This document shows positions 3,407 through 15,222 of a stretch of 64,000 bases of DNA, piece by piece. Under the pieces are notes generated by a model. It searched no databases. It was not told the DNA's origin and saw nothing but the letters and a program-made list of their open reading frames with translations. Made by a program: the position numbers and the translations under genes. Position 1 is the first letter of the stretch, and each line of letters begins with the position of its first letter. The stretch comes from a virus (Duplodnaviria; Caudoviricetes), in the IMG/VR virus record IMGVR_UViG_2785511464_000001, positions 1 through 64,000 of that record, one strand, 5' to 3'.

Positions 3407-3562
3407 CTGCTGCAGAGGGGAACAACCCACGGCATAGAACCGTGGGTGATCCCGCCTCGCCTTATGCAATTAATTGCACTATTATGGGCACGTTCTCCTT
3501 GAGCCCGGAGTCGAGCTATGCAATTAATTGCATTGTTGTTTTGCGTCGGCCAAGGAGGGACG

Positions 3563-3988
3563 ATGAGCATCCAGATCGGATACAGCCGAAGGGCTGCGAG
3601 CACCCAAGCTTTCGCGATGATCGCCGAAGGCTGGAACGACCTCGTGCAGGAAGGCTTCACGCCTGATCTCGTGGGTACGTGTCCCGTCAACGCCAATTCC
3701 GAGGTCATCTACGCGGTGAGCTCTGACGGTGACGTCGTGGGTGTTCTGACCTGGGAGTACCGGGACGATAAGGATGCTTACGAAGTCACCCTCGGCTACG
3801 TCGAACCATCGAGCAGGCAGCAGCGTGCATTCACGGAGATGTTCAAAACCTTGCATGACAGGGCGCAGAGCAAGGGCGTCTCGACCGTGTATGTACCGGT
3901 CCACCCCAATAACGAGGTGGCCCGGCTGGTGTTGGCGAAACTCAAAGCCAGCGCCGTCTCCGTGGTGTACGAACATGCTGTCGCCTAA
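3563..3988 (+). CDS. GNAT family acetyltransferase
   Basis: YVEPSSRQQR (motif A-like) and VHPNNEVA (motif B); CCAAGGAGGG SD before ATG 3563. Confidence 0.75.
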   Translation: MSIQIGYSRRAASTQAFAMIAEGWNDLVQEGFTPDLVGTCPVNANSEVIYAVSSDGDVVGVLTWEYRDDKDAYEVTLGYVEPSSRQQRAFTEMFKTLHDRAQSKGVSTVYVPVHPNNEVARLVLAKLKASAVSVVYEHAVA

Positions 3989-4005
3989 CATGTGCGAGGC
4001 GGTAG

Positions 4006-4308
4006 ATGGATGGGAATTTCTGGGGGGCGCTGATCCGGGCGCTCCGAGAGGAACAAGGCATCTCGCAGAGGACGCTCGCTGCGGCGACGGGCGTCAATCG
4101 GTCAACCTTACGGAAGATCGAGAGCGGCGAGACGTCCGGCGATATTCGCGTGATGGAGACCCTGCTGAGCCATCTAGGCTACGAGCTGGAAGCCATCCAA
4201 CAGAAACTCAAGGCCGAAGGGTTTCGCTTCGACAGCCGGGACGCGTTCTCAGCGGATCGCCGTTCGAGGCTTGCTGCCGCACGGGTGTTGACAATCAGCC
4301 TGGGCTGA
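4006..4308 (+). CDS. XRE-family helix-turn-helix regulator
   Basis: IRALREEQGISQRTLAAATGVNRSTLRKIESG. Confidence 0.9.
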   Translation: MDGNFWGALIRALREEQGISQRTLAAATGVNRSTLRKIESGETSGDIRVMETLLSHLGYELEAIQQKLKAEGFRFDSRDAFSADRRSRLAAARVLTISLG

Positions 4309-4309
4309 C

Positions 4310-4337
4310 TTGATAGCCGCCGATCCTGTGCTAGAGT
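4310..4337 (+). promoter_or_regulatory. Sigma70-like promoter with a palindrome just downstream
   Basis: TTGATA-N16-TAGAGT; palindrome variant at 4341-4354. Confidence 0.55.
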
Positions 4338-4372
4338 GAATGAAATTAATTGCACAAGCCAAGGAGGGCAGT

Positions 4373-4888
4373 GTGGTCGTCATCGAACCGGATTTCCAAG
4401 AATTGCTGCACGTGGCCGGGTTGGCCGCCGCATACCTCGAACACGCTGAGACACATGACGGGTTCGACGATCCGACCGAATGGGAGATCGACGCCATCCA
4501 GAAGGTCCGGGATTGGGTGGACGCGCTTCAGCACCTTGGCCCCGAGGGTGAGATCAAGCTGGCGACCATTGCGCTTCAGACGCACGGCTTCGACGTGACG
4601 AACCAAGTCTTCCACGCCGAGACCCAGAAGATACTGGCGGTCAGCACGGCGCACGTGACCGAGGAGACAGCCCAGCGGCTCGACGCAGACGACATTGAGG
4701 GCGTGACGGTCTTCCCGAAGGCCGGTTTCGGTTGGTGGGTCCACACGACCCCGCACCCGGACGCCAGCGCCGGGATACCGCAGGAGCTGCGGGACGCAAT
4801 GAACTTCGCGGTAGGTGCCGGGTGTGACTGGCTCATGCTCGACCGCGACGCAACCATCATCGAAGAACTGCCACATTGGGAATGGTGA
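4373..4888 (+). CDS. Hypothetical protein with DUF5983-like C-terminus
   Basis: STAHVT...GWWV...IPQEL...CDWLMLDRDA...LPHWEW; GTG start after CCAAGGAGGG. Confidence 0.6.
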   Translation: MVVIEPDFQELLHVAGLAAAYLEHAETHDGFDDPTEWEIDAIQKVRDWVDALQHLGPEGEIKLATIALQTHGFDVTNQVFHAETQKILAVSTAHVTEETAQRLDADDIEGVTVFPKAGFGWWVHTTPHPDASAGIPQELRDAMNFAVGAGCDWLMLDRDATIIEELPHWEW

Positions 4889-4892
4889 CATC

Positions 4893-5240
4893 ATGCAGGT
4901 GAAGTTAGTCTCGTTCGGGTTCAAGTACGGCCCGCCATACGACGTCAAGAAGATCGTCGATTGCCGCCCCATGAAGAACCCCCACAACGTCACCGAGCTG
5001 CGCCGGCTCACCGGGCTTGATGGTCGCGTGCAGAAATACGTTGAGACCGACGACAGGTTTGGCCGCACCCTGCAGGAGGCGCTGCTGGGCCTGAACGATG
5101 GAGACACCGTTGCCTTCGGGTGCTACGGCGGCAGGCACCGGTCAGTGGCCATGGTCGAGATGTCTGCGTATCGTCTGAGGGCGTCGGGGTTCGATGTCGA
5201 GGTGCACCACCGGGAACTCGACATTCGGAGGACGGCATGA
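4893..5240 (+). CDS. Stand-alone RapZ (YhbJ) C-terminal domain
   Basis: SFGFKYG, DCR.MKNPH, LTGLD, AFGCYGGRHRSVA, HREL. Confidence 0.8.
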   Translation: MQVKLVSFGFKYGPPYDVKKIVDCRPMKNPHNVTELRRLTGLDGRVQKYVETDDRFGRTLQEALLGLNDGDTVAFGCYGGRHRSVAMVEMSAYRLRASGFDVEVHHRELDIRRTA

Positions 5241-5686
5241 TCCTTACGGGCAACACCATCCGGCAGCTCTGCATTTTCACACCGTTTTCGGAACGGACCA
5301 GACACAAGGGCCTCACCTATGGTGTCGGCCCGGCTGGCTACGACGTACGCATCGATCAGGAGGTCAGACTGATGCCCGGCGGCTTCAGCCTGGCTTCGAC
5401 CGTCGAGCACTTCAACATGCCGCAGAATGTCCTCGGCATCGTGCACGACAAGAGCACCTGGGCTCGTGTCGGCCTCGCGGCACAGAACACCGTGATCGAG
5501 CCCGGCTGGCGTGGATACCTGACGCTTGAGCTGACGAACCACGGTGACGAGGCGATCCTGATCGAGGAGGGGATGGCCATCGCCCAGATCATCATCCATC
5601 AGCTCGATGATCATGCCAGCGTCGCGTATGACGGGAAGTATCAGGACCAGCAGCGCGGGCCTCAGCCGGCAATCTTCGAAAAATAG
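5237..5686 (+). CDS. dcd: dCTP deaminase
   Basis: PAGYDVR, DKSTWARVGL, TVIEPGWRGYLTLEL, YDGKYQDQ. Confidence 0.9.
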   Translation: MILTGNTIRQLCIFTPFSERTRHKGLTYGVGPAGYDVRIDQEVRLMPGGFSLASTVEHFNMPQNVLGIVHDKSTWARVGLAAQNTVIEPGWRGYLTLELTNHGDEAILIEEGMAIAQIIIHQLDDHASVAYDGKYQDQQRGPQPAIFEK

Positions 5687-5754
5687 AGCGATTTCTGTGT
5701 GTTACCCCGCGTCCCGTCGGTAGACTAGGGCAACCACAGAAATAGGAGACGACA

Positions 5755-6255
5755 TTGGAAGTCTGGACAATCGGTCACTCAAACCACAGCTTCGAGGATT
5801 TCCTTGGCCTGCTGAAGCAAAACCAGATCACAATGCTGATTGACGTGCGATCTAAGCCGGTATCCCGGTTCCCGCACTTCCAGCGTGACAATCTCATCCG
5901 TGGTGTGCGGTCGAACGGGGTCGATTACCGGTACGGCGGGAAAGTCCTCGGTGGGCTCGGCGACGTGCAGGTGACGGCCCCGCTGTTCATCGCCAAGATG
6001 GACGCGATCCTCCAGTTCACTGAAGAAGGCCACCGCGTCGCGATGATGTGCTCCGAGGGTAAGCCCTGCGAGTGTCACCGGGCCGGCAAACTGACAGCTT
6101 GGCTCCATCGTGAACGACCCGATGTGAAGACCACGCACATCATGCGAAACGGGGCTTTGGTGGACGCCCGCAGCTACGAGCCAAAGGTGATCGCGGAAGT
6201 CACGTGGCCCGACTTTGCATCCACCATGAAGGATCAGGGCGACTTCGGTATTTGA
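5755..6255 (+). CDS. DUF488 family protein
   Basis: TIGHSNHS, LIDVRSKPVSRFPHF, LGG, MMCSE...CHR. Confidence 0.85.
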   Translation: MEVWTIGHSNHSFEDFLGLLKQNQITMLIDVRSKPVSRFPHFQRDNLIRGVRSNGVDYRYGGKVLGGLGDVQVTAPLFIAKMDAILQFTEEGHRVAMMCSEGKPCECHRAGKLTAWLHRERPDVKTTHIMRNGALVDARSYEPKVIAEVTWPDFASTMKDQGDFGI

Positions 6256-6269
6256 TCAAGGACGAACCT

Positions 6270-7190
6270 GTGGCAAAACAATCGAGCAATGCGGGTGCCG
6301 GTGCGGTCCGGCCTTCTCCTTCCCGGAGAGGAAGCCTCATCGAAGAGAGCCGCCCGCTCCAAACCTACCTGACCAGTCTTGATGCTATGCGACCAGCGCT
6401 GGTGCCCTCCGGGGCACCTGCGTTCGCATTCTCGCCGCTGAACGTGATGCCTAAGATCGCTCTGGGCAAGCTCGATGTCGAGCAGGCATCCGGGGGGCTG
6501 GTGCTCTCCGATGGTGGCGGGGTCCGTGTCGCGCCGACCGCCAGCCCGAGCGAATACTATCAGACGCTCCTCGAACTGCTGGAAGATGGTCGCCCCCTCC
6601 ACCTCGTCCCAGAGCCCATTGCCGCCCACTTCAAGCTTGGCGGCTACACCGTCAGCAAGCAGCACGACGAGTATGTGATGCGCACCGAGGACGTTCAGAC
6701 GTTCCCCGGCAAGCGCAACCGGCAGATGCGCGGCAACGTCAACAAGGCGCGGCGTCTCTGCGAAGTCGAGGTGTTCGACGGTGGCGACCCTGCGGAGTAC
6801 AAGGCGCTGGTCAAAACCTGGTATCGCCAGAACGCGGACCTGAAGTTCCGCACCTACGACAAGACCAGCATCGACTGGCTCCTCGAAAACTGGAGCGAGC
6901 TGGTTTCGCATGTGCCCGACCTCCTGTGCCTTGGTCTGCGCCATGATGCGCAATTAATTTCACTGAACATGGGTTGCCGGCTGACCGACCAGCACTGGAC
7001 CGCGTACACGCAGCGGTTCGACCGGCACGCTCCGGTGAAACACGCGAACATGCTCGGCTACCAGACGCTCGCGCACTCCTTCGCGGACTGCGCCCTGGAG
7101 AATGACGGGACCGCCGACACCAAGACGATCCGAGAATGGAAGGACCGGCTGGTGTCTCATAAAATCAGTTTCTACACGGTGAGGAAATGA
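6270..7190 (+). CDS. DUF2156 / MprF-C-like (Fem/GNAT fold) aminoacyl-transferase-like protein, no membrane domain
   Basis: EYVM...FPGKRNRQMRGNVNK resembles the DUF2156 'DY.Y...L.GK....KR...NK' pattern; ends with ND-G...IREWK. Confidence 0.5.
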   Translation: MAKQSSNAGAGAVRPSPSRRGSLIEESRPLQTYLTSLDAMRPALVPSGAPAFAFSPLNVMPKIALGKLDVEQASGGLVLSDGGGVRVAPTASPSEYYQTLLELLEDGRPLHLVPEPIAAHFKLGGYTVSKQHDEYVMRTEDVQTFPGKRNRQMRGNVNKARRLCEVEVFDGGDPAEYKALVKTWYRQNADLKFRTYDKTSIDWLLENWSELVSHVPDLLCLGLRHDAQLISLNMGCRLTDQHWTAYTQRFDRHAPVKHANMLGYQTLAHSFADCALENDGTADTKTIREWKDRLVSHKISFYTVRK

Positions 7191-8239
7191 ACAGCTTTGA
7201 TGTCATATCGAAGGGGCTTCTGCCCTTTCTCGGAGGGATGAGGCGCTTCATCCCTTTTCTGTTTGATGCAGCTCAGTCGGTGGTGCCGATGTCCGAGTGG
7301 CACAAGTGGAGCTACCACGACATGACCTGCGGCAGCTGCGCAGGCTCCGCAGCCTTCGGCTTCTACGGCATGTCCGTCTCGGCAAACGATCTGGCGCTCC
7401 GATCCTATGTGTCTGCTCAGGCAATCTTCGGCGACGTCCGGTCGCGCCGCTGGGTGCTTGAGGGCCTGCTGCGTCTTGCACAGGAGAAGGCACCCGAGGA
7501 ACTAGTCCCCGACGGAAAGACCCCGGCAGGCGAGCTGATCCCCGACCACCTGCACCCCATTGCGGCGGCGGTCTTTGATGCCCTGTATTATGCATCGGAG
7601 CGCGGTGATCTCGTGCGCGAGCAGGCGGCGTATTACCGCTTCATGGCTGTGCGTTGGGTGCTGCTGAACAAGAACTACATGTACTTCCTGAAGCTCCCGA
7701 CCCAAGACCTTCAGCAGCTGTCGTTGCAGGGGAAGCAGTGGGAGAACGTGGCGAAAATACTCCTGGAGCCTCTGCCGGCCCTTCTCAAGGTGGCCAAGGA
7801 CGTCGATCATCTCGTCCACGCCCTGCAGTCCGCGAAGATGGAACGAGCACCCAAGGTGATGGTTGGCGACTGCCGGGAGAACATCAAGCAGATCGACTTC
7901 GACCGACCAAGCTTCGTTGGCCTGAACCCGCCGACCGCCGGCAACGCGACGTTCATGCAGTCGAACCGCGTCCTCGACACCCTTCTGTTCAATGAGCCGC
8001 AGGCGCTCGACGAAGGCGACATGCCGGGCGACCTGTGGCGCTCCCTAATCCTCGACACCGTGGCGCATATCCCGAGCGGGCATTACGTCTTCAGCTTTGT
8101 CGGGGACGGAGCCGTGAGCTGGGAGGAAGGCAAGGAGGAGGTGTTCGCCAAGGTCGGCCCGACGGTCAAGGAGTGGTCGTTCCCGTGGCACGGGTCGGAC
8201 ACGCGCAATGCGGGCCTCATCCTGCTCAGGAGGGACTGA
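7187..8239 (+). CDS. SAM-dependent DNA amino-methyltransferase-like protein with atypical NPPT motif
   Basis: PFLGGMRRF (Dam/D12 N-terminus), DMTCGSCAGS (motif I), SANDL, GLNPPT at the motif IV position. Confidence 0.65.
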   Translation: MNSFDVISKGLLPFLGGMRRFIPFLFDAAQSVVPMSEWHKWSYHDMTCGSCAGSAAFGFYGMSVSANDLALRSYVSAQAIFGDVRSRRWVLEGLLRLAQEKAPEELVPDGKTPAGELIPDHLHPIAAAVFDALYYASERGDLVREQAAYYRFMAVRWVLLNKNYMYFLKLPTQDLQQLSLQGKQWENVAKILLEPLPALLKVAKDVDHLVHALQSAKMERAPKVMVGDCRENIKQIDFDRPSFVGLNPPTAGNATFMQSNRVLDTLLFNEPQALDEGDMPGDLWRSLILDTVAHIPSGHYVFSFVGDGAVSWEEGKEEVFAKVGPTVKEWSFPWHGSDTRNAGLILLRRD

Positions 8240-9072
8240 TGCCGGCACCGATTGACAAGATCAAGACGCAGAACAAGTGGGTCCGCCGTCTCTGTGACGT
8301 CGAGGAGCAGGCGCTGCGCATGTGTGTCCCGGTCAACCTGGAGACCTGCGACCCCGAGGTGATCGTGGTGGACAAGGGGCTTGCCCGTGATCTCTTCGAT
8401 TACTGGCGCGTGGTGCTGTCCTCGGAGCCTCAGTCTCCGCACTTTGCCGGGGCAGGGCGCTCGCTTGCTCTCCTCGTTCGTGACCGGGTGTCCGGGGGCT
8501 TCCTCGGCGTGGTGGGGCTGTCTGACCCACCCAACCACTGGACCCAGCTGATCGACCACCTCGGGTGGCACAAGGAGCACGAGCATCTTCGCCTGGCGAA
8601 CCAGCATCGGATCGTGATGATGCGTCGGTGCCTGCCCGTGTTCGAGTTCGGACAGATGACCGGAGGCAAGCTTCTCGCCCTTGCGGCGACCAGCCGGGAC
8701 GTCATCCGTCTCCTGGAGTTGCGGTACAGCTACCAGTACCTCTTCTTCGGCATCAGAACGCTTCACGGCAAGGGCAGCCAATACAACCGGCTGAACCAGC
8801 GAGGCGTCAAGCTGATTGATGTTGATGAAACCGACCACGGCTTCTATGGTATGGAGCTGCGGAAGAAAGCGGTCTCATTCCTCCGGGGTGAGGCCGACGC
8901 ATACGGTAAGACTGCCACGTACACGCTCAGCGACCAGATCGACTACTGGCGCGAACGTTGGCTCCAAGCCCGAATGACGTCGCTTTCTGTTGGACCCACG
9001 ATACAGATCGATCCCGAACGTTACCGGCTGTCCGATCAGCTGGACGCCAAGCGGATGACCTCAGAACAGTAG
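8239..9072 (+). CDS. DruA/DUF4338-like (Mom-related GNAT fold) protein
   Basis: GRSLALLVRD...FLGVVGLSDP, GGKLLALAATS, TLHGKGSQYNRL. Confidence 0.7.
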   Translation: MPAPIDKIKTQNKWVRRLCDVEEQALRMCVPVNLETCDPEVIVVDKGLARDLFDYWRVVLSSEPQSPHFAGAGRSLALLVRDRVSGGFLGVVGLSDPPNHWTQLIDHLGWHKEHEHLRLANQHRIVMMRRCLPVFEFGQMTGGKLLALAATSRDVIRLLELRYSYQYLFFGIRTLHGKGSQYNRLNQRGVKLIDVDETDHGFYGMELRKKAVSFLRGEADAYGKTATYTLSDQIDYWRERWLQARMTSLSVGPTIQIDPERYRLSDQLDAKRMTSEQ

Positions 9073-9092
9073 CGCACCATGGAGGGCGAAGA

Positions 9093-9992
9093 ATGGCACT
9101 GAACCTCAAGAAGAAGAAACCGCAGTCTGCGGCCAAAGATGCGAAATTAATTGCACAGCCCGACGGCGCAGACGAGACCATCGACTTCCGCATCGTTCCC
9201 ATCGACGACATCGAGCCGAACGAGTACAACCCGAACGACATGGAGGCCGAGTTCTTCGAGGCCATCGTGCAGCAGGTGAAAGAGGAAGGCATGAACCAGC
9301 CGATCCTCTGTCGGGCCAATCCCGAGAAGGAAGGCAAGTTCCTGATCGTGGATGGCGAGCATCGCTGGCGCGCGTCCAAGGTGGCCGGCAAGAAGGTGAT
9401 CCCGATCATCGTCGTGCCGTTCGACGCGAAGCAGGCCAAGGTGCGCACGCTGTCGATGAACAACCTTCGCGGCCAGAATATCCCGATCAAGTTGGCCCGG
9501 CTTCTGGTGGACCTCCACAAGGAGTACAGCGCCAACGAAATCCGGGCGATGACCGGTATCGGCGAGGATGAGCAGACCTCCGTCCTCAGCCTCCTGAAGG
9601 TTCCCGACTTCAACCCCTCCGACGGCATCAAGATGACGGCTCAGGACGTCGAACGTCCGATCTCGGTCAGCCTTCTGCTGCTCCCGGACGAGCACACGGC
9701 CTACACCACCGCCATGAAGAAGGCGATGAAGGTCGCTGGCGATGACGTGACGGCGCTGATCGGTCACGAGGTTGCCAGCTACGACAACGCCATGAAGGCG
9801 GCTATGGGGCTGGCCGGCGCGAAGCTCAGGAACGTTGCCCTGGCACTGATCTGCGAGACGTTCAATCAGATGCCCAAGGATCAGCAGGCCGAGATCGCCA
9901 AGGCCGCCCACGCGAAGATTTACGACAAGCTCGCCAATGACGCAGAGGCGAAGGAGACCAAGAAGCAGGCGGCGGCGAAGAAAAGCGGATGA
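9093..9992 (+). CDS. ParB/Srx-like domain protein
   Basis: IEPNEYNPN, QPIL, IVDGEHRWRA, NNLRG. Confidence 0.88.
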   Translation: MALNLKKKKPQSAAKDAKLIAQPDGADETIDFRIVPIDDIEPNEYNPNDMEAEFFEAIVQQVKEEGMNQPILCRANPEKEGKFLIVDGEHRWRASKVAGKKVIPIIVVPFDAKQAKVRTLSMNNLRGQNIPIKLARLLVDLHKEYSANEIRAMTGIGEDEQTSVLSLLKVPDFNPSDGIKMTAQDVERPISVSLLLLPDEHTAYTTAMKKAMKVAGDDVTALIGHEVASYDNAMKAAMGLAGAKLRNVALALICETFNQMPKDQQAEIAKAAHAKIYDKLANDAEAKETKKQAAAKKSG

Positions 9993-10624
9993 CGAAGATC
10001 AAGATCAGGAAGAAGCGCGTCGGTCTCAAGAAGGTCAAGCAACGCCTTCCCGTGGAGGAGCGCGCCACCCTTCCTGATTGGGTCGATGTCCCGGAAGCCC
10101 CCACCTACGACCGTCGGAGTGGCGAAGCCCAAGAGTATGATGAGCAGCAGGTTGCTCGGGTCGAGCTCATGATGATGAAGGGTGTGCGCAGCAAGCGTCA
10201 GCTGATGGCTATGCTCGACATCACCGACGGTCGTGCGATGGATCGCTACATACGGCGCATCCACGCACGCTGGGAAATGGTGGGCACGACCCAGGAGTTT
10301 GCCCGACACCGGGGGGAGGGCTTAGCGCGCCTCGACCTGATCGAAAGCGAACTCTGGTCTCGCCTGTCGCAGCTGGAGCAGAAGGCAACACCGCAGGCAC
10401 CCTTGGGTTACCTGAGCGCCATCATGCGGGTCCACGAGCTTCGCTCGGAGCTGCTTGGTCTCACGCCGAAGGTGATCGCGCACATCGGGACGTCCGACGA
10501 CGGCGGATCGGACTTCGCTCGCCGGCTTGCTCAGCACGACCGCCTCACACAACTCGCTGCCCGCATGTCCGCGATGGTGGAAGAACGAATGAAGGTCATC
10601 GATCATGGCGGGGAAACCACGTAA
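9989..10624 (+). CDS. terS: Probable terminase small subunit
   Basis: HTH-like N-terminus, helical body ending R..LLGL; overlaps the start of terL. Confidence 0.6.
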   Translation: MTKIKIRKKRVGLKKVKQRLPVEERATLPDWVDVPEAPTYDRRSGEAQEYDEQQVARVELMMMKGVRSKRQLMAMLDITDGRAMDRYIRRIHARWEMVGTTQEFARHRGEGLARLDLIESELWSRLSQLEQKATPQAPLGYLSAIMRVHELRSELLGLTPKVIAHIGTSDDGGSDFARRLAQHDRLTQLAARMSAMVEERMKVIDHGGETT

Positions 10625-12485
10625 CGTTCCGCAGCGCGTGCTCGATGAGGTCGCGCAGGAGCTGCTGGCCGAGGTGGCGAACGACTATCCCGAAGACCTA
10701 GAGGTCGTGATGTCGTTCCTGTCAGAGGCCGCGCGCAGCCCTGATGCATTCAAGCGCTTGGTTCGGTTCAAGCACGAGCCGGTCGGTCCACGCGAGTTTG
10801 TCGAGGGCAAGGAGTTCATGGGAAAACCGACGGCCCTGTGGCCGTTGGTCATGCGTGAGTTCGAAGAACTCAACAGCGGCAGGTACACCGAAAGCGTGCT
10901 CACGGGCGGTATTGGCGTCGGGAAGACGCACCTGGCCTTGTACACGCAGGCTTATCAGCTCTACCTCCTGTCCTGCATGCGTGACCCTCACGCGGAGTTC
11001 GATCTGGACCCCACGTCCGAGATCGTGATCATCTTCCAGTCGCTCAACAAGCAGCTGGCCGAAGGCGTCGATTACACGCGATTCCGCGCGATGATCGAGA
11101 GCGCCCCTTATTTCAAGAAGCACTTCGCATTCGACACCGACATCACCAGCGAGATGCGCTTTCCGAAACGGATCATCGTCAAGGCGATCACGGGTCAGGA
11201 TACAGGCGCGATTGGTCAGAACGTGATCGGCGGCCTGATTGACGAAGTGAACTTCATGGCCGTGACCGAGAAGTCGAAGCTGTCGAAGGACGGCGAGGTC
11301 CACGATCAGGCCGTCAAGAATTACAACTCGATTGCACGACGCCGCGAGAGCCGCTTCATGCAGCTCGGCGCACTGCCGGGCATGCTTTGCCTTGTCTCCT
11401 CCAGAAACTATCCGGGCCAGTTCACCGACAAGAAGGAGGAAGAGGCCCGGACGAACCCGCGCATCTTCATCTACGACAAGAGGACTTGGGAGGTCCGACC
11501 CGAGAAGTTCACGAGCGAAAGGTTCCGGGTCTTTGTCGGGGACGCAACCCGGAAGCCGTATATCCTCACCGACGACACAGACGTCGCGATGCAGGATGAG
11601 CACTTGGTGGTGGACGTCCCCACGGAGTACCGGCACCAGTTCGAGACCGATCTGCTGGCCGCGCTGCGGGACGTGGCCGGCGTGGCTACCCTGGCGCTGC
11701 ATCCGTTCATGCACAACACCGAAGCCGTGACCTCTTGCTTCGGCACCGTTGAGTCCATCGGGTCGCGGGAAGACGTGGACTTCGTGGCCACCAAGCTGAA
11801 GCTATACCCCAAGAGGATCGCGAACCCGCAGGAGCCCCGACTGGCGCACGTCGATCTGGCGTACTCGAAGGACAGTGCCGGCGTCAGCATCGGCCATGTC
11901 GTAGGCTTCAAGGAGTGTAGCCGGGGCGATTACGTCGAGACCCTGCCGATCATCCGCTTCGACCTCGTGCTTGAGGTGAAGGTGCCTCGGGGCGGGGAGA
12001 TCGAGCTGTCGAACATCAGAAAGCTGCTTTACACGCTGCGGGACAAGATGGGGCTCCCAATCAAGTGGGTCAGCTTCGACGGGTTCCAGAGCCGAGACAG
12101 CATGCAAATCCTCTACCAGCAGGGTTTCGTGGTGCATTACCAGTCGATGGACAAGGACACCGACGCGTACGACTTCACCAAGCTTGCGTTCATGGACGGG
12201 CGCGTGCAGGCTCCGGCCCACCCGAAGGCCATGCGTGAAATGATCACCCTGGAGATCAACACCAAGGATCGCGTCATCGACCACCCGCCGCACGGCTCCA
12301 AGGACGTGGCCGACAGTATGGCCGGCGTCGTCTACGGTCTCACGATCCTCCGGGAAATCTGGCTCCGCTACAACATTCCCATGCAGAAGGTGCCGCGTCT
12401 GGTTCAGAACAGTAACGAACCCAAGTCCGCCACGAAGATCAAGAAGGGGGCCGGGGTCGATTTCGACGGGATGATCGATGAATAG
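10605..12485 (+). CDS. terL: Terminase large subunit
   Basis: Walker A GGIGVGKT, Walker B GLIDE, nuclease motifs HVDLA, FDGFQS, DHPPHGSKDVAD. Confidence 0.88.
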   Translation: MAGKPRNVPQRVLDEVAQELLAEVANDYPEDLEVVMSFLSEAARSPDAFKRLVRFKHEPVGPREFVEGKEFMGKPTALWPLVMREFEELNSGRYTESVLTGGIGVGKTHLALYTQAYQLYLLSCMRDPHAEFDLDPTSEIVIIFQSLNKQLAEGVDYTRFRAMIESAPYFKKHFAFDTDITSEMRFPKRIIVKAITGQDTGAIGQNVIGGLIDEVNFMAVTEKSKLSKDGEVHDQAVKNYNSIARRRESRFMQLGALPGMLCLVSSRNYPGQFTDKKEEEARTNPRIFIYDKRTWEVRPEKFTSERFRVFVGDATRKPYILTDDTDVAMQDEHLVVDVPTEYRHQFETDLLAALRDVAGVATLALHPFMHNTEAVTSCFGTVESIGSREDVDFVATKLKLYPKRIANPQEPRLAHVDLAYSKDSAGVSIGHVVGFKECSRGDYVETLPIIRFDLVLEVKVPRGGEIELSNIRKLLYTLRDKMGLPIKWVSFDGFQSRDSMQILYQQGFVVHYQSMDKDTDAYDFTKLAFMDGRVQAPAHPKAMREMITLEINTKDRVIDHPPHGSKDVADSMAGVVYGLTILREIWLRYNIPMQKVPRLVQNSNEPKSATKIKKGAGVDFDGMIDE

Positions 12486-12640
12486 CTACAGATCGTGGAG
12501 TGACACTGCCCTCCGGGGCTTTGAAGACGAATTGGATCGCCGAGGCATACGCTTCATCACCAAGAAGTTCACGGTGACCACCGAACAGAATGTAGACGCC
12601 CTCGCCGCCGAGTGGGGCCTAACGAGGAAAGACCATAAGA

Positions 12641-13147
12641 ATGACCGCCGCAGGAATAGAAGAGCTTAGGGAACGCGACCAGCTGGTTGTCGAGGCCGCG
12701 CTGCCCGCCCACATGATGTACCTCATGGTCGAGGAGTGCCAGAAAATTGGGGTGGAGCTTCGCGCCGACGTGCAGGAGAAACTGAACCTTGCCGCCGTGG
12801 CTCCTCTCACACGACTGGACGAACTCTCGGTGTCCCGGACGGCCAAAAGGATCGACGAGCTGGCCCGGACACTTCTTCACGACCTGTCCCCGGACGACCC
12901 CCGCGACGGGCTCTATTCGTGCGCGATGTTCTGTCTGACCCTCGTGGACGAAGGGTTCCTGCATGACCGCACCAATCAGGCGGTGCTGGTCTCCCTGCTG
13001 CTGATGTCCGACCTGGAGGACGACCGGAAGGACGAGGCGGGGGAGGAGGCTGTGTGGCGCATGACGCAGGCTCGATGGAAGAGCGCCGCCGGGAAACTGC
13101 ATGTTCGGGCAGCCCTGCAGGGGGTCTACAATATCCGGCGACATTAG
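12641..13147 (+). CDS. Hypothetical protein
   Basis: Co-directional ORF with phage-like codon use. Confidence 0.6.
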   Translation: MTAAGIEELRERDQLVVEAALPAHMMYLMVEECQKIGVELRADVQEKLNLAAVAPLTRLDELSVSRTAKRIDELARTLLHDLSPDDPRDGLYSCAMFCLTLVDEGFLHDRTNQAVLVSLLLMSDLEDDRKDEAGEEAVWRMTQARWKSAAGKLHVRAALQGVYNIRRH

Positions 13148-13148
13148 G

Positions 13149-13198
13149 TGCAATTAATTGCACATTTTCCTTGATCGGGAGCGGCCAAATGCTAGGAT
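13149..13198 (+). promoter_or_regulatory. Palindrome plus promoter for the PPDK operon
   Basis: Palindrome 13149-13162, 8 bp, TTGATC-N16-TAGGAT. Confidence 0.65.
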
Positions 13199-13230
13199 GA
13201 ATTGAGCCACACCGAACCAAGGAGGGTTGC

Positions 13231-15222
13231 GTGGATAAGCGAATTTTCAGGTTCTCCCAGAACCATTGCGATTGGGCCGGCGACGATGCGGATGCCAAGA
13301 AAATCCTTGGCGGCAAAGGTGCCGGCCTCGTGCAGATGTGTCGTGCAGACATGCCTGTCCCGCCGGGCTTCACGATCACCACGGAAGTCTGCAACGTCTT
13401 TCTGGCCATCGACCCGGAGCAGGGCAGCATCGGCACGAAGGACGAGTTCCTTGACCACCTCATGCAGGGCGTTGCGGAGCATGACCAGTGGCTGAGCACC
13501 GAGTTCGGGTTCACGCCCCTCGTGTCCGTGCGCTCAGGCGCACCGATCTCGATGCCCGGTATGATGGATACGATCCTGAATGTCGGCCTGACGGACGAGA
13601 CGCTTCCCGAATGGGAGGATCGCATCGGACAGCGCGCCGCGCTCGACAGCTATCGCCGCCTCATCCAGATGCTCGGAGCCACGGCCTATGGCGTCCCCAT
13701 GCCGCTGTTTGACGAGCACCTTGAGGACATCAAAGAGACCGCCGGGGTCTCCGACGACAAGGAGCTGACCGTTACGGACCTCCAAGAGCTCATCGAGTGC
13801 TACAAGATGGTGTTTCAGGCGGTCGTGCAGCATGCGTTTCCGCAGAGTCGCACAGAGCAGCTGCGCGCCGCCGTGCGGGCCGTGTTCGATAGTTGGATGA
13901 ATGAGCGCGCCATCGAATACCGGAAGCTCAATCAGATCGACGGGGCGATGGGCACCGCCGTGAATATTCAGGCGATGGTCTTCGGCAACATGGGTGACGA
14001 TAGCGGGTCAGGCGTGGCGTTCACCCGAGACCCTTCGACGGGCGAGAACCACACGATGGGCGAGTACCTGCACAACGCGCAGGGTGAGGACGTGGTGGCG
14101 GGTATCCGAACACCGTACTCGCTGGACGAACTCTTTGAGACGAAGAGCCCGCCGTGGGCCACGGAGTTCTGTACGCTGTGCTCCGATCTGGAAGATATGT
14201 ACGACGACATGGTTGACTTGGAGTTCACCGTTCAGCAGGGCAAGCTGTGGTTGCTCCAGAGCCGAGTTGGGAAGCGCTCCGCGCGCGCCGCCTTCAAGAT
14301 CGCCGCCGATCTGGTGGAGGAAGGTGTGATCGACAGGGGTGTGGCCCGGTCCCGGCTGACGGCACAGCAGTTCAAGACGGTGCGCAGGCCGACGATTGAC
14401 CCGTCGTTTGACGTGCCCCCGGCGCTCGTTGGACTGCCTGCGTGCCCCGGCGTCGTGACAGGCGTGCCCGTTCTCTCGTCGAAGGATGCAATTAATTGCA
14501 ATGAACCGTGCATCCTGATCACCAACGAGACGACGCCAGACGACATCGGAGGCATGAACGCCGCCGTGGGCGTGCTGACGAAGACTGGTGGTGCCACCAG
14601 CCACGCGGCAGTCGTTGCTCGGGCGATGGACAAGGCTTGTGTGGTTGGTTGCACCGGGCTCGATATTCTTGGCGACTGGACGGACGTGACGAAGGTCACA
14701 ATCGACGGGGCGACCGGCAGAGTCTGGTTCAATGTCGATGTTCCCGTGATCGACAGTTCCGATGCAAAGGAAGTCGCCACCGTGATGGGGTGGTGTATGG
14801 AGGTTCTGGGCTGCTGTGAGGCGGCAGTGGTCGATCTTGGCGCAGACAAGCCGCACACGATCATGGCCGCACACTGGTGGGGCAACGAAGATGTTCTGAA
14901 CGCAGTCCTTGACGGAATTGCCGAGCTGCCGAGCAGGCAGCACGTCACGCTCGACACGCGGTCGCCGAACGATCTGGCACCGTTCTGTGACTACATGCTG
15001 GCGGACTGCTTCGGCGAAACTGCGCCCGATCATGAGTTCAAGGAGGTCATAATCAGTGTTCTGAAGCAGAGGAGCAAAGAGCTGAAGGGACTGTCCCTCG
15101 CACCGTGGGAGGATATGCCGGAGCTCTACTCTGAAGGGTTCACGCCCGCTGGCGCAGGGTCGCAACACGTACCATTGGCCGTGCCCGCTGACTATGCCGC
15201 CTTCTCCGTTCTGGGTCGGTGA
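13231..15222 (+). CDS. PPDK-like dikinase with ATP-grasp and phospho-His domains but no pyruvate-binding barrel
   Basis: LGGKG, VSVRSGA..SMPGMMDT, QAMVFGN, GEDVVAG, DLEFT, LQSR, GGATSHAAVVAR; 663 aa, with only about 160 aa after the His domain. Confidence 0.9.
   Translation: MDKRIFRFSQNHCDWAGDDADAKKILGGKGAGLVQMCRADMPVPPGFTITTEVCNVFLAIDPEQGSIGTKDEFLDHLMQGVAEHDQWLSTEFGFTPLVSVRSGAPISMPGMMDTILNVGLTDETLPEWEDRIGQRAALDSYRRLIQMLGATAYGVPMPLFDEHLEDIKETAGVSDDKELTVTDLQELIECYKMVFQAVVQHAFPQSRTEQLRAAVRAVFDSWMNERAIEYRKLNQIDGAMGTAVNIQAMVFGNMGDDSGSGVAFTRDPSTGENHTMGEYLHNAQGEDVVAGIRTPYSLDELFETKSPPWATEFCTLCSDLEDMYDDMVDLEFTVQQGKLWLLQSRVGKRSARAAFKIAADLVEEGVIDRGVARSRLTAQQFKTVRRPTIDPSFDVPPALVGLPACPGVVTGVPVLSSKDAINCNEPCILITNETTPDDIGGMNAAVGVLTKTGGATSHAAVVARAMDKACVVGCTGLDILGDWTDVTKVTIDGATGRVWFNVDVPVIDSSDAKEVATVMGWCMEVLGCCEAAVVDLGADKPHTIMAAHWWGNEDVLNAVLDGIAELPSRQHVTLDTRSPNDLAPFCDYMLADCFGETAPDHEFKEVIISVLKQRSKELKGLSLAPWEDMPELYSEGFTPAGAGSQHVPLAVPADYAAFSVLGR

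Follow-up and report, generated by a model that had tools for sequence, protein, structure and literature searches.

The window, a 64,000-nucleotide stretch of a viral genome, contains a run of eight genes from a dCTP deaminase to the large terminase subunit (TerL), all on the + strand and with high GC3 values of 0.73–0.84 (Table 1). Stops and starts of successive genes in the operon overlap or abut. A sequence-only reading had named these eight as a contiguous, partly overlapping set, and all of them were recovered with unchanged coordinates and with HMM, fold or synteny support. Family searches by HMM confirmed most of the genes, while the small subunit (TerS) matched no family and was placed by its position and conserved synteny, and TerL by annotated relatives and a Walker A motif.

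Transcription of the operon most likely starts at a promoter-like site, the single sigma-70-like site found between 3900 and 13400, and not at 5237, where the locus had been taken to begin. Two extra genes lie within the operon upstream of 5237. The first operon gene encodes a very acidic DUF5983 protein (pI 4.4) and is a variable member found in some relatives only. The second encodes a stand-alone RapZ C-terminal domain, is kept also in phage RHph_TM16, whose cassette differs, and is a backbone gene without module specificity. The unit probably ends at the terminator-like hairpin listed last in Table 1. The genes are best read as a single operon for the lytic cycle of a ~96-kb temperate siphophage, in which the enzyme genes are flanked by early regulator genes on one side and by the terminase genes on the other.

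Table 1. Features of the operon, with positions in the window
Feature	Position	Strand	Basis
Promoter-like site, TTGATA-16-TAGAGT with TG	4310-4337	+	sigma-70-like
14-bp AT-rich palindrome	4341-4354	+	directly after the promoter-like site
DUF5983-domain protein	4373-4888	+	PF19419, E 8e-23; start picked by RBS
Stand-alone RapZ C-terminal-domain protein	4893-5240	+	PF22740, E 5e-29
Short dCTP deaminase, dUTPase fold	5237-5686	+	TIGR02274, 103 bits (cut-off 92.8); PF22769
DUF488 protein	5755-6255	+	PF04343, 49 bits (cut-off 22)
Soluble DUF2156/LPG_synthase_C-like protein, MprF C-domain family	6270-7190	+	PF09924, 30.5 bits (cut-off 27.5)
Dam/D12-derived SAM-enzyme-fold protein	7187-8239	+	AF2 fold, Foldseek, hhalign
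DUF4338/DruA-type GNAT acyltransferase	8239-9072	+	PF14236, 44 bits (cut-off 27)
Orphan ParB	9093-9992	+	PF02195 and TIGR00180 above cut-off
Putative small terminase subunit, TerS	9989-10624	+	position between ParB and TerL and conserved synteny only
Large terminase subunit, TerL	10605-12485	+	annotated homologues, Walker A
Palindrome and terminator-like hairpin, next promoter region after it	13148-13163	+	

TerL had no match in Pfam, PHROG or PDB sequence searches; it was identified by its 50% identity over ~600 aa to large terminases annotated in GenBank and by the Walker A motif GGIGVGKT (residues 101–108). Identity to its homologues, which include the GenBank-annotated TerL of RHph_TM16, RcZahn and DLP5, ranges from 50 to 84%. 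ParB has an NTP-binding N-domain with a GEHRWRA box, an HTH region and a module-specific C-terminal part. Since the phage is integrated and no ParA was found in its genome, partition does not require ParB. In unrelated phages, too, DruA is followed by this ParB subtype, with 32% identity over 234 aa (L015) and 59% (L028) in phages whose terminase is unrelated, whereas the ParB of sister phages with a sugar cassette shares the N-domain alone (20–26%).

Comparison of contigs defined a rare and mobile module, in which DUF488 and a DruA-type GNAT are joined by a cognate orphan ParB. DUF488 and DruA are present in every complete copy, and ParB follows wherever the contig extends. The gene order DUF488-DUF2156-MTase-DruA-ParB-TerS-TerL recurs in independent contigs and is thus not due to chance. 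Copies of the module in the same phage group are L005, L007, L008, L013 and L021. A D12-like enzyme is a usual member, and the variable tailoring genes are one or two DUF2156-like transferases, an amidoligase, a small GNAT or another methyltransferase. For instance, L014 has two DUF2156 paralogs and a small GNAT; L023 has two paralogs and a gap at the place of the small GNAT of L014; L011 combines two paralogs with a D12-like enzyme, and L009 carries Amidoligase_2 and a Methyltransf_23 enzyme. The DUF2156-like gene is absent from L015 (a Mu-like prophage), L028 and the P0144 contig, and hence is a tailoring member with 0–2 copies per module. Moreover, a natural fusion of the D12-like and DruA proteins (P0113, 610 aa) was found on 11 contigs, and fusions of ParB folds to DUF488, acetyltransferase and methyltransferase domains have been published (PMC12704722). 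Among 50,697 GenBank records, no cultured phage had a DruA-like or DUF2156-like gene.

DUF488 and the DruA-type GNAT make up the invariant core, and this role of DUF488 had been overlooked by the sequence-only reading. The DUF488 alignment shows the conserved motifs GHS, DVRS.P.SR, LGG and CSEG.P..CHR, and we know of no activity for this family. The dCTP deaminase, whose nearest solved relatives are also dCTP deaminases (E 1e-18), had been listed among the operon genes; the gene is present here, but it is lacking in L008, L014, L009, L011 and L015. Upstream of DUF488, L005, L007, L013, L023, L028 and the P0097 contig have a DCD or dUTPase gene, adjoining it in all of these but the last. Thus the dCTP deaminase accompanies the module in some lineages only.

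The AF2 model of the DruA-like protein (pLDDT 91.8) matched GNATs exclusively, and the GNAT assignment stands, as does that of DUF2156. Against 48,161 PDB representatives, Mu Mom (8bv8) ranked first (Z 10.2, rmsd 3.2, 154 residues), tied with generic GNATs. Mom is a GNAT that moves glycine from Gly-tRNA onto N6 of adenine in dsDNA (PMC13219725), and provides a precedent for a DNA-modifying enzyme of this fold that takes its amino acid from charged tRNA; both proteins are phage-encoded and expressed with late functions. The earlier label 'DruA/Mom-like' holds for DruA, and for Mom at the level of the fold: membership in the Mom family by sequence was rejected (hhalign 0.2% against Mu Mom, no PF25680 match). 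Moreover, Mom acts alone with its regulator Com only, whereas the phage GNAT always occurs with DUF488 and ParB, and usually with the Dam derivative and other tailoring enzymes. The authors of the Mom study pointed out that a GNAT structure does not reveal donor or target (PMC13219725). The phage protein also shares the DUF4338 core of DruA from type I Druantia, described as a GNAT domain (PMC10853773), but it is shorter (277 aa versus ~400), matches positions 17–176 only of the 297-position model, is encoded by a phage rather than a host, and has no DruB–E neighbours.

The protein left unnamed as an MTase fold is a Dam/D12 derivative. Its AF2 model (pLDDT 87.6) gave DpnM, Dam and T4 Dam as best Foldseek matches (VIA Z ~15), and hhalign against D12 methyltransferases reached 98.9% (E 4e-17). 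With these enzymes it shares the fold, the order of SAM-binding half, helical insert and catalytic half, motifs I (DMTCGSC) and II (AND), and a frequent pairing with ParB. It differs in lacking a PF02086 match, in belonging to a very rare family, with 85 clusters in a set of 1.84 billion representatives, and in that the phage-clade enzyme occurs beside, or fused to, a GNAT. The sequence-only reading also missed a changed catalytic motif, since motif IV of the protein is NPPT (and NPPT, DPPT or NGPT in its clade) instead of DPPY, in which the aromatic residue stacks the target adenine in known enzymes. This change goes with DUF488 and DruA: the fourth residue is Thr in all six DruA-linked D12-like proteins and Tyr in both D12-ParB pairs lacking DUF488 and DruA (L029, L030), a comparison of eight contexts in total.

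The DUF2156-like protein is a putative aminoacyl-tRNA-dependent aminoacyl transferase. Its profile matches the solved DUF2156-type structure 2hqy (E 0.004), PF09924 is carried by most of its homologues, and its size suits a double-GNAT unit as in MprF C-terminal domain and FemX-type enzymes. The known substrates of DUF2156/MprF and Fem enzymes are lipids and cell-wall precursors; to our knowledge none acts on DNA. The phage protein has no flippase domain and no predicted membrane segment, and is therefore soluble, as had been claimed; it is also distinguished by its place in a ParB-terminase operon, by occasional tandem duplication, and by the acceptor proposed here, a DNA adduct.

With a probability of about 0.5, we propose that the module encodes a multi-step, amino-acid-derived, post-replicative pathway of phage DNA hypermodification. 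ParB would bind phage DNA, move along it and recruit the enzymes there. The GNAT would then acylate or aminoacylate an exocyclic base amine, by analogy with Mu Mom, and adenine N6 is the likeliest target because its partner has Dam ancestry. The DUF2156-like enzyme may add an amino acid from charged tRNA to this adduct, and the Dam derivative, its pocket presumably enlarged by loss of the Tyr, may methylate the pre-substituted base or its side chain, so that the product would shield packaged DNA against host nucleases. The modular gene set, the variable tailoring genes, the D12-like::DruA fusion and the ParB subtype that moves with the module all fit a multi-step modification of DNA with amino acids. 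The multi-step scheme already suggested by the sequence-only reading is thus supported in part, by families, folds, modularity, fusion and ParB subtype, while we infer which acyl donor is used and which base is modified; the suggested link to packaging is based on the transcription shared with the terminase genes.

Some known pathways of thymidine and cytosine hypermodification in phages, such as that to glucosyl-hmC of T4, start at 5-hydroxymethyl pyrimidines, and Lee et al. (2018, in PNAS) reportedly described pathways of this kind. These also are multi-enzyme phage operons with variable tailoring steps, whose products include amino-acid-derived groups and guard DNA from restriction. However, the enzyme families of the module are not known from them, and a thymidylate-synthase-type hydroxymethylase is missing from the phage. 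Neither ThyA nor ThyX has a homologue in it, which speaks against the classical hydroxymethyl-pyrimidine route and agrees with the modification of an amine already in place.

In the sister phages RHph_TM16, DLP5 and DLP3, a sugar-nucleotide/glycosyltransferase cassette occupies the same slot before ParB-TerS-TerL. DLP3 DNA proved resistant to each of the 15 restriction enzymes tested (PMC7326821), and a cassette in this slot of phages with restriction-resistant DNA fits DNA modification. The resistance could also stem from shared backbone genes instead of the slot. The authors of the DLP3 study suggested LPS modification for the glycosyltransferase (PMC7326821).

An unlikely alternative is that the enzymes do not act on DNA, but on substrates such as tRNA or other RNA, free nucleotides or small molecules, for example by making an aminoacylated or peptidyl nucleotide for counter-defence, or by pre-replication synthesis and subsequent incorporation. 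The fold matches are compatible with this, including TmcA (tRNA cytidine acetyltransferase) and N-acyl amino acid and AHL synthases for the GNAT, and an acp-transferase for the MTase fold; similar tRNA-dependent transferases work in natural-product pathways (PMC13219725), ParB folds can serve as NTP-binding modules alone (PMC12704722), and several lineages have a gene for a dCTP deaminase or dUTPase ahead of DUF488. However, about half of the modules have no nucleotide-metabolism gene, the SAM enzyme derives from DNA adenine methyltransferases, the ParB of this phage has full DNA-binding architecture (TIGR00180 above cut-off), and the module always adjoins a ParB, often also terminase genes. 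Simple m6A protection by an ordinary orphan methyltransferase with ParB, beside accessory genes that form no joint pathway, seems quite improbable. ParB-methyltransferase links are common in phages (PMC12704722), and D12-ParB pairs exist in L029 and L030 as described, but the Thr variant strictly co-occurs with DUF488 and DruA, is in one case naturally fused to the latter, and has lost the adenine-stacking residue clade-wide.

It is similarly improbable that the phage DruA, signature of type I Druantia, and DUF488 hinder or mimic host immunity without any covalent mark on DNA, as might be suggested by the matches of DruA to Pfam and PADLOC models, of DUF488 to the PADLOC candidate systems PDC-M45 (family PDC-M45B, 1e-29) and PDC-M19, and by the acidic DUF5983 protein. 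The DruA match covers the GNAT core alone, Druantia genes are absent nearby, and all members share strongly conserved catalytic-type motifs, which suits enzymes rather than decoys. Very improbable, finally, is lysogenic conversion of the envelope, in which lipids or peptidoglycan precursors would be aminoacylated or acylated by the MprF/Fem-like enzyme and the GNAT to block superinfection. It would suit what DUF2156/MprF and Fem enzymes are known to act on, and the membrane or LPS role that the DLP5 and DLP3 authors gave to the sugar cassette, but none of the module proteins has a membrane segment, and three lineages do without the DUF2156-like gene, while DruA, DUF488 and ParB are not dispensable. 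Moreover, the genes are translationally coupled within the terminase operon rather than forming a separate moron, and ParB and the Dam ancestry indicate DNA, as in the hypermodification pathway proposed above.

A siphovirus protein of 695 aa named 'Amidoligase enzyme' has a DruA-like structural match over ~200 columns, and may be a fusion of amidoligase and GNAT.

We read the operon in front of the terminase genes as a phage DNA hypermodification pathway with a probability of about one half; by class, it is an uncharacterised variant within the known phage DNA hypermodification operons. The window takes up the first 64 kb of an IMG/VR provirus record of 95,770 bp, the completeness of which is estimated at 97%. 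Nearly all genes lie on the plus strand, and GC3 of real genes is 0.7–0.85. TerL and other backbone genes are akin to those of temperate siphophages of ~96–101 kb, namely Rhizobium RHph_TM16, Rhodobacter RcZahn and Stenotrophomonas DLP5 and DLP3. Near-identical and related copies were found in contigs binned with MAGs of Burkholderiaceae and other Proteobacteria, and one identical protein is encoded on a 3.98-Mb contig; thus, the phage is an integrated prophage. Judged by its domain matches, the gene at the left end is probably the prophage integrase.

Genes of the operon and the left-end gene, with window coordinates
Feature	Position	Strand	Remarks
Integrase-like gene	1-1908	minus	635 aa; Phage_integrase 24.5 bits, below cut-off 27.1; DUF6538 N-terminus
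DUF5983 protein	4373-4888	+	
RapZ C-domain protein	4893-5240	+	
dCTP deaminase	5237-5686	+	
DUF488	5755-6255	+	
DUF2156/LPG_synthase_C-like	6270-7190	+	
MTase-fold (D12-like) protein	7187-8239	+	
DruA-like	8239-9072	+	
ParB	9093-9992	+	
Putative TerS	9989-10624	+	assigned by position alone
TerL	10605-12485	+	annotated homologues and Walker A

The sequence-only reading had described eight genes, from dCTP deaminase to TerL. All eight are present, and matches above curated cut-offs (Pfam, NCBIfam, PHROG) were obtained for dCTP deaminase, DUF488, LPG_synthase_C, DruA and ParB; gene starts were refined by ribosome-binding sites and homologue alignments. Within 3900-13400 the sole sigma-70-like site is at 4310-4337, with a 14-bp palindrome directly after it, the next palindrome, with a hairpin, follows at 13148, and stops and starts overlap at several junctions. 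Therefore the eight genes belong to a larger transcription unit, which most likely starts ~900 bases earlier. The DUF5983 protein in this added part is very acidic (pI 4.4, 32 Asp+Glu in 171 aa), recalls DNA-mimic anti-restriction proteins in composition, and is present in only some relatives. The next gene encodes a RapZ C-terminal domain on its own (115 aa, PF22740 E 5e-29) and is conserved in the phage backbone; its RHph_TM16 counterpart is annotated as an ATPase-domain protein. No membrane segment was found in any cassette protein, and scanning for tRNAs and Rfam families turned up nothing useful in the operon or elsewhere in the phage.

Comparison with other loci defined the module. Every complete copy has DUF488 and a DruA-type GNAT, with ParB following wherever the contig is long enough, while D12-like and DUF2156-like enzymes are frequent and dispensable. 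The module is rare: 2.9 million IMG/VR contigs yielded 8 loci, 185,579 species genomes yielded 2, and no cultured phage among 50,697 GenBank records has a DruA-like or DUF2156-like gene. As a set, the varying tailoring genes (an extra aminoacyl transferase, an amidoligase, an acetyltransferase and methyltransferases) resemble a decoration pathway that is diversifying.

Gene order of the module in the compared loci (L numbers) and one homologue contig (P0144)
Locus	Gene order	Remarks
Window, L005, L007, L008, L013	DUF488 - DUF2156 - D12-like - DruA - ParB - TerS - TerL	L021 has the same architecture, its contig being cut upstream of the DUF2156 gene
L014	DUF488 - DUF2156 - DUF2156 - small GNAT - DruA - ParB - TerS - TerL	L023 is ordered likewise, with a gap at the small GNAT
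L011	DUF488 - DUF2156 - DUF2156 - D12-like - DruA - ParB	
L009	DUF488 - DUF2156 - Amidoligase_2 - Methyltransf_23 enzyme - DruA - ParB	
L015-L017	DUF488 - D12-like::DruA fusion - metallopeptidase - ParB	prophage with Mu-type portal; fusion of 610 aa, 11 contigs
L028	dUTPase - DUF488 - D12-like - DruA - ParB	
P0144 contig	DUF488 - D12-like - DruA	

Close homologues of the MTase-fold protein number only 23 in a set of 5.8 billion proteins, and 85 clusters were matched among 1.84 billion representatives. Its AF2 model (pLDDT 87.6) has the class I SAM-enzyme fold, interrupted by a long insert of helices, the best Foldseek matches are DpnM, E. coli Dam and T4 Dam, and VIA-align gave Z ~15 against many methyltransferases. 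Distant members of its HMM search do match Pfam D12 (PF02086), and the family alignment against those members reached 98.9% in hhalign (E 4e-17, 301 columns). Judged from these profiles, the protein is homologous to D12-class N6-adenine DNA methyltransferases, despite having no direct match to PF02086 in Pfam. Motif I (D45-x-x-x-G49, after strand 1) and motif II (N67-D68, end of strand 2) are invariant and align with the D12 motifs. Motif IV of D12-class enzymes is DPPY, the aromatic residue of which stacks the flipped adenine, whereas the window enzyme has NPPT, invariant across its family and aligned exactly onto DPPY. Among D12-like relatives with readable neighbours, a small sample counted irrespective of phylogenetic independence, the six that stand beside DUF488 and DruA all have Thr as the fourth residue of motif IV (NPPT, DPPT or NGPT), and both that are simply paired with ParB (L029, L030) have Tyr there (DPPY). 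The pattern suggests that the stacking tyrosine was lost as the GNAT and DUF488 were recruited.

In type I Druantia, DruA is the signature protein and is encoded beside DruB–DruE (large helicase), whereas the phage gene has DUF488, DUF2156-like, D12-like, ParB and terminase genes as neighbours, and DruA was the sole match of Druantia models to cassette proteins. The DruA-like protein matches PF14236 (DUF4338) with 44.1 bits (gathering score 27) and the PADLOC DruA model with E 5e-6; PF14236 is also present in most of its homologues. Its AF2 model (pLDDT 91.8; 295 residues, beginning 18 residues upstream of the preferred start) has a GNAT core at residues 55–236 with helices on both flanks, and all Foldseek and VIA matches are GNATs, in line with an earlier description of DUF4338 as a GNAT domain (PMC10853773). 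The sequence-only reading had called this protein Mom-like, and it is the fold that held. In a Foldseek-independent search, Mu Mom (8bv8) came first among 48,161 PDB representatives (Z 10.2, 154 aligned residues), with generic GNATs at Z 9.8, so that this first place is a tie (within 1 Z). The Mom-family part failed: PF25680 was not matched at E <= 0.01 (Mu Mom as positive control, 253 bits), hhalign of the DruA-like alignment against Mu Mom gave a probability of 0.2%, and membership of the Mom family was ruled out, the fold alone being in common. The Mom authors state that donor and target of a GNAT are not predictable from structure (PMC13219725). The best matches of the model in a viral structure library (BFVD) are uncharacterised giant-virus proteins (Faunusvirus, Yasminevirus, Dasosvirus), large proteins in which the DruA-like GNAT domain is found at E 1e-13 to 1e-7; such a domain is likewise matched in a siphovirus protein of 695 aa that goes by the name 'Amidoligase enzyme'.

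The DUF2156 assignment of the earlier reading was borne out by PF09924 (30.5 bits, gathering score 27.5; profile positions 80–162), which is on record in most of 40 homologues, and by a profile match to PDB 2hqy (E 0.0036). MprF has an N-terminal integral-membrane flippase domain, whereas the 306-aa window protein has no membrane segment (peak 19-residue hydropathy 0.99). The substrates known for DUF2156 and Fem enzymes are lipids and precursors of the cell wall. For DUF488 we know of no activity. Among the candidate defence families of PADLOC, the DUF488 protein matches PDC-M45B (E 1e-29), PDC-M45C and PDC-M19A; DUF488 is therefore on both the host and the phage side of conflicts. Sequence searches of the PDB gave nothing useful for the D12-like, DruA-like, DUF488 and DUF2156-like proteins (the profile match to 2hqy aside), nor did an Atlas search with DUF488 or a literature search on DUF488 or DUF2156 with phage DNA modification. 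The dCTP deaminase matches TIGR02274 (103.1 bits vs 92.8, on the long ORF version; profile 68–174 of 180) and its nearest relatives of solved structure are dCTP deaminases, among them short ones (155–156 aa) that align over their full length. It was ruled out as a core member, since about half of the modules lack it. Three separate lineages have a gene of the dUTPase fold (dUTPase or dCTP deaminase) upstream of DUF488 (window 5237-6255, L028 3849-4857 and the contig of homologue P0097), directly adjoining it in the first two.

The window ParB has an NTP-binding N-domain with a conserved GEHRWRA box and an HTH region (PF02195 57.8 bits vs 26.3; TIGR00180 71.2 vs 58.45), and is the only ParB-fold gene of the phage. 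A role in partition is unlikely: no ParA was found in the 95.8-kb record by PF13614 or PF01656 (positive controls in 14/14 genomes), and the provirus is integrated, with its integrase-like gene and the identical protein on a megabase contig. The ParB beside DruA is a distinct subtype that moves with the module. It has 59% identity in L028, and 32% over 234 residues in L015 though the terminase of L015 is unrelated; ParBs of the sugar-cassette sister phages have only the N-domain in common with it (20–26%). The 14-bp palindrome TGCAATTAATTGCA has 28 window copies at <=2 mismatches (0.03 expected), e.g. at 4341, 6949, 9142 and 13149, with two degenerate copies inside the DUF2156-like and ParB genes. 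It is present in DLP5, which has the other ParB subtype, and at <=1 mismatch it is absent from the module-bearing loci L011, L015 and L023. The distribution of the palindrome does not track ParB subtype, and we made no link between it and the module ParB.

DNA is the likely target of the pathway, because the SAM enzyme is of DNA adenine methyltransferase descent, because ParB has full DNA-binding architecture, and because D12-like and DruA proteins are fused in one lineage and published work (PMC12704722 and a preprint) has ParB folds fused with domains of the DUF488, acetyltransferase and methyltransferase kinds. The precedent of Mu Mom, a GNAT that aminoacylates adenine in dsDNA from Gly-tRNA with glycine going to N6 (PMC13219725), points the same way. 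So do the sister phages, whose cassette in the slot before ParB-TerS-TerL is one of sugar-nucleotide and glycosyltransferase genes (epimerase/dehydratase, aminotransferase, methyltransferase or deacetylase, large glycosyltransferase; RHph_TM16 4465-9648, DLP5 3524-8957, and DLP3 too), since DLP3 DNA resisted all 15 restriction enzymes tried (PMC7326821). The DLP3 authors favoured LPS modification as the glycosyltransferase role (PMC7326821), and the resistance might stem from shared backbone genes. Hydroxymethyl-pyrimidine pathways have a thymidylate-synthase-like dUMP/dCMP hydroxymethylase, whereas no ThyA or ThyX homologue (PF00303 or PF02511) was matched in the phage record; this argues against such a route, and classical thymidine or cytosine hypermodification was ruled out. 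The observation made from sequence is confirmed, and the multi-step base modification proposed from it is supported in part.

In a specific tRNA-dependent and ParB-guided version of the pathway, which we consider possible but doubtful, the orphan ParB clamp would deliver the DruA-type GNAT, DUF488 and Fem/MprF-like transferases to phage DNA, these enzymes would jointly assemble an adduct of aminoacyl or short peptidyl type on adenine, and the Tyr-less Dam derivative would then methylate the adduct. Phage DNA hypermodifications shape escape from restriction and CRISPR and are a source of useful enzymes. To our knowledge, only one DNA modification uses charged tRNA, the Mom reaction, which takes a single enzyme and was explained in 2026. 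If true, the module would be the first multi-enzyme tRNA-dependent DNA hypermodification pathway, extending Mom chemistry to a diversifying multi-step route. It would give DUF488 a biochemical role, and DUF488 and phage DUF2156-like proteins their first functions, and make DruA of type I Druantia a DNA-modifying enzyme, a testable hypothesis for that system. Moreover, confirmation would account for a Dam lineage without the stacking tyrosine and for a non-partition job of orphan phage ParB proteins.

Downstream of the module, TerL has 50% identity over ~600 residues to GenBank-annotated large terminases, with a Walker A motif at residues 101–108; no match was found in Pfam, PHROG or PDB sequence searches. 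In one relative (L008 8691-11523; L025 1963-4795), the TerL gene is split by ~1 kb directly after residue 107, i.e. within the Walker A GKT (residues 106–108 in the window protein), and this insert looks like an intein or an intron with a homing endonuclease.
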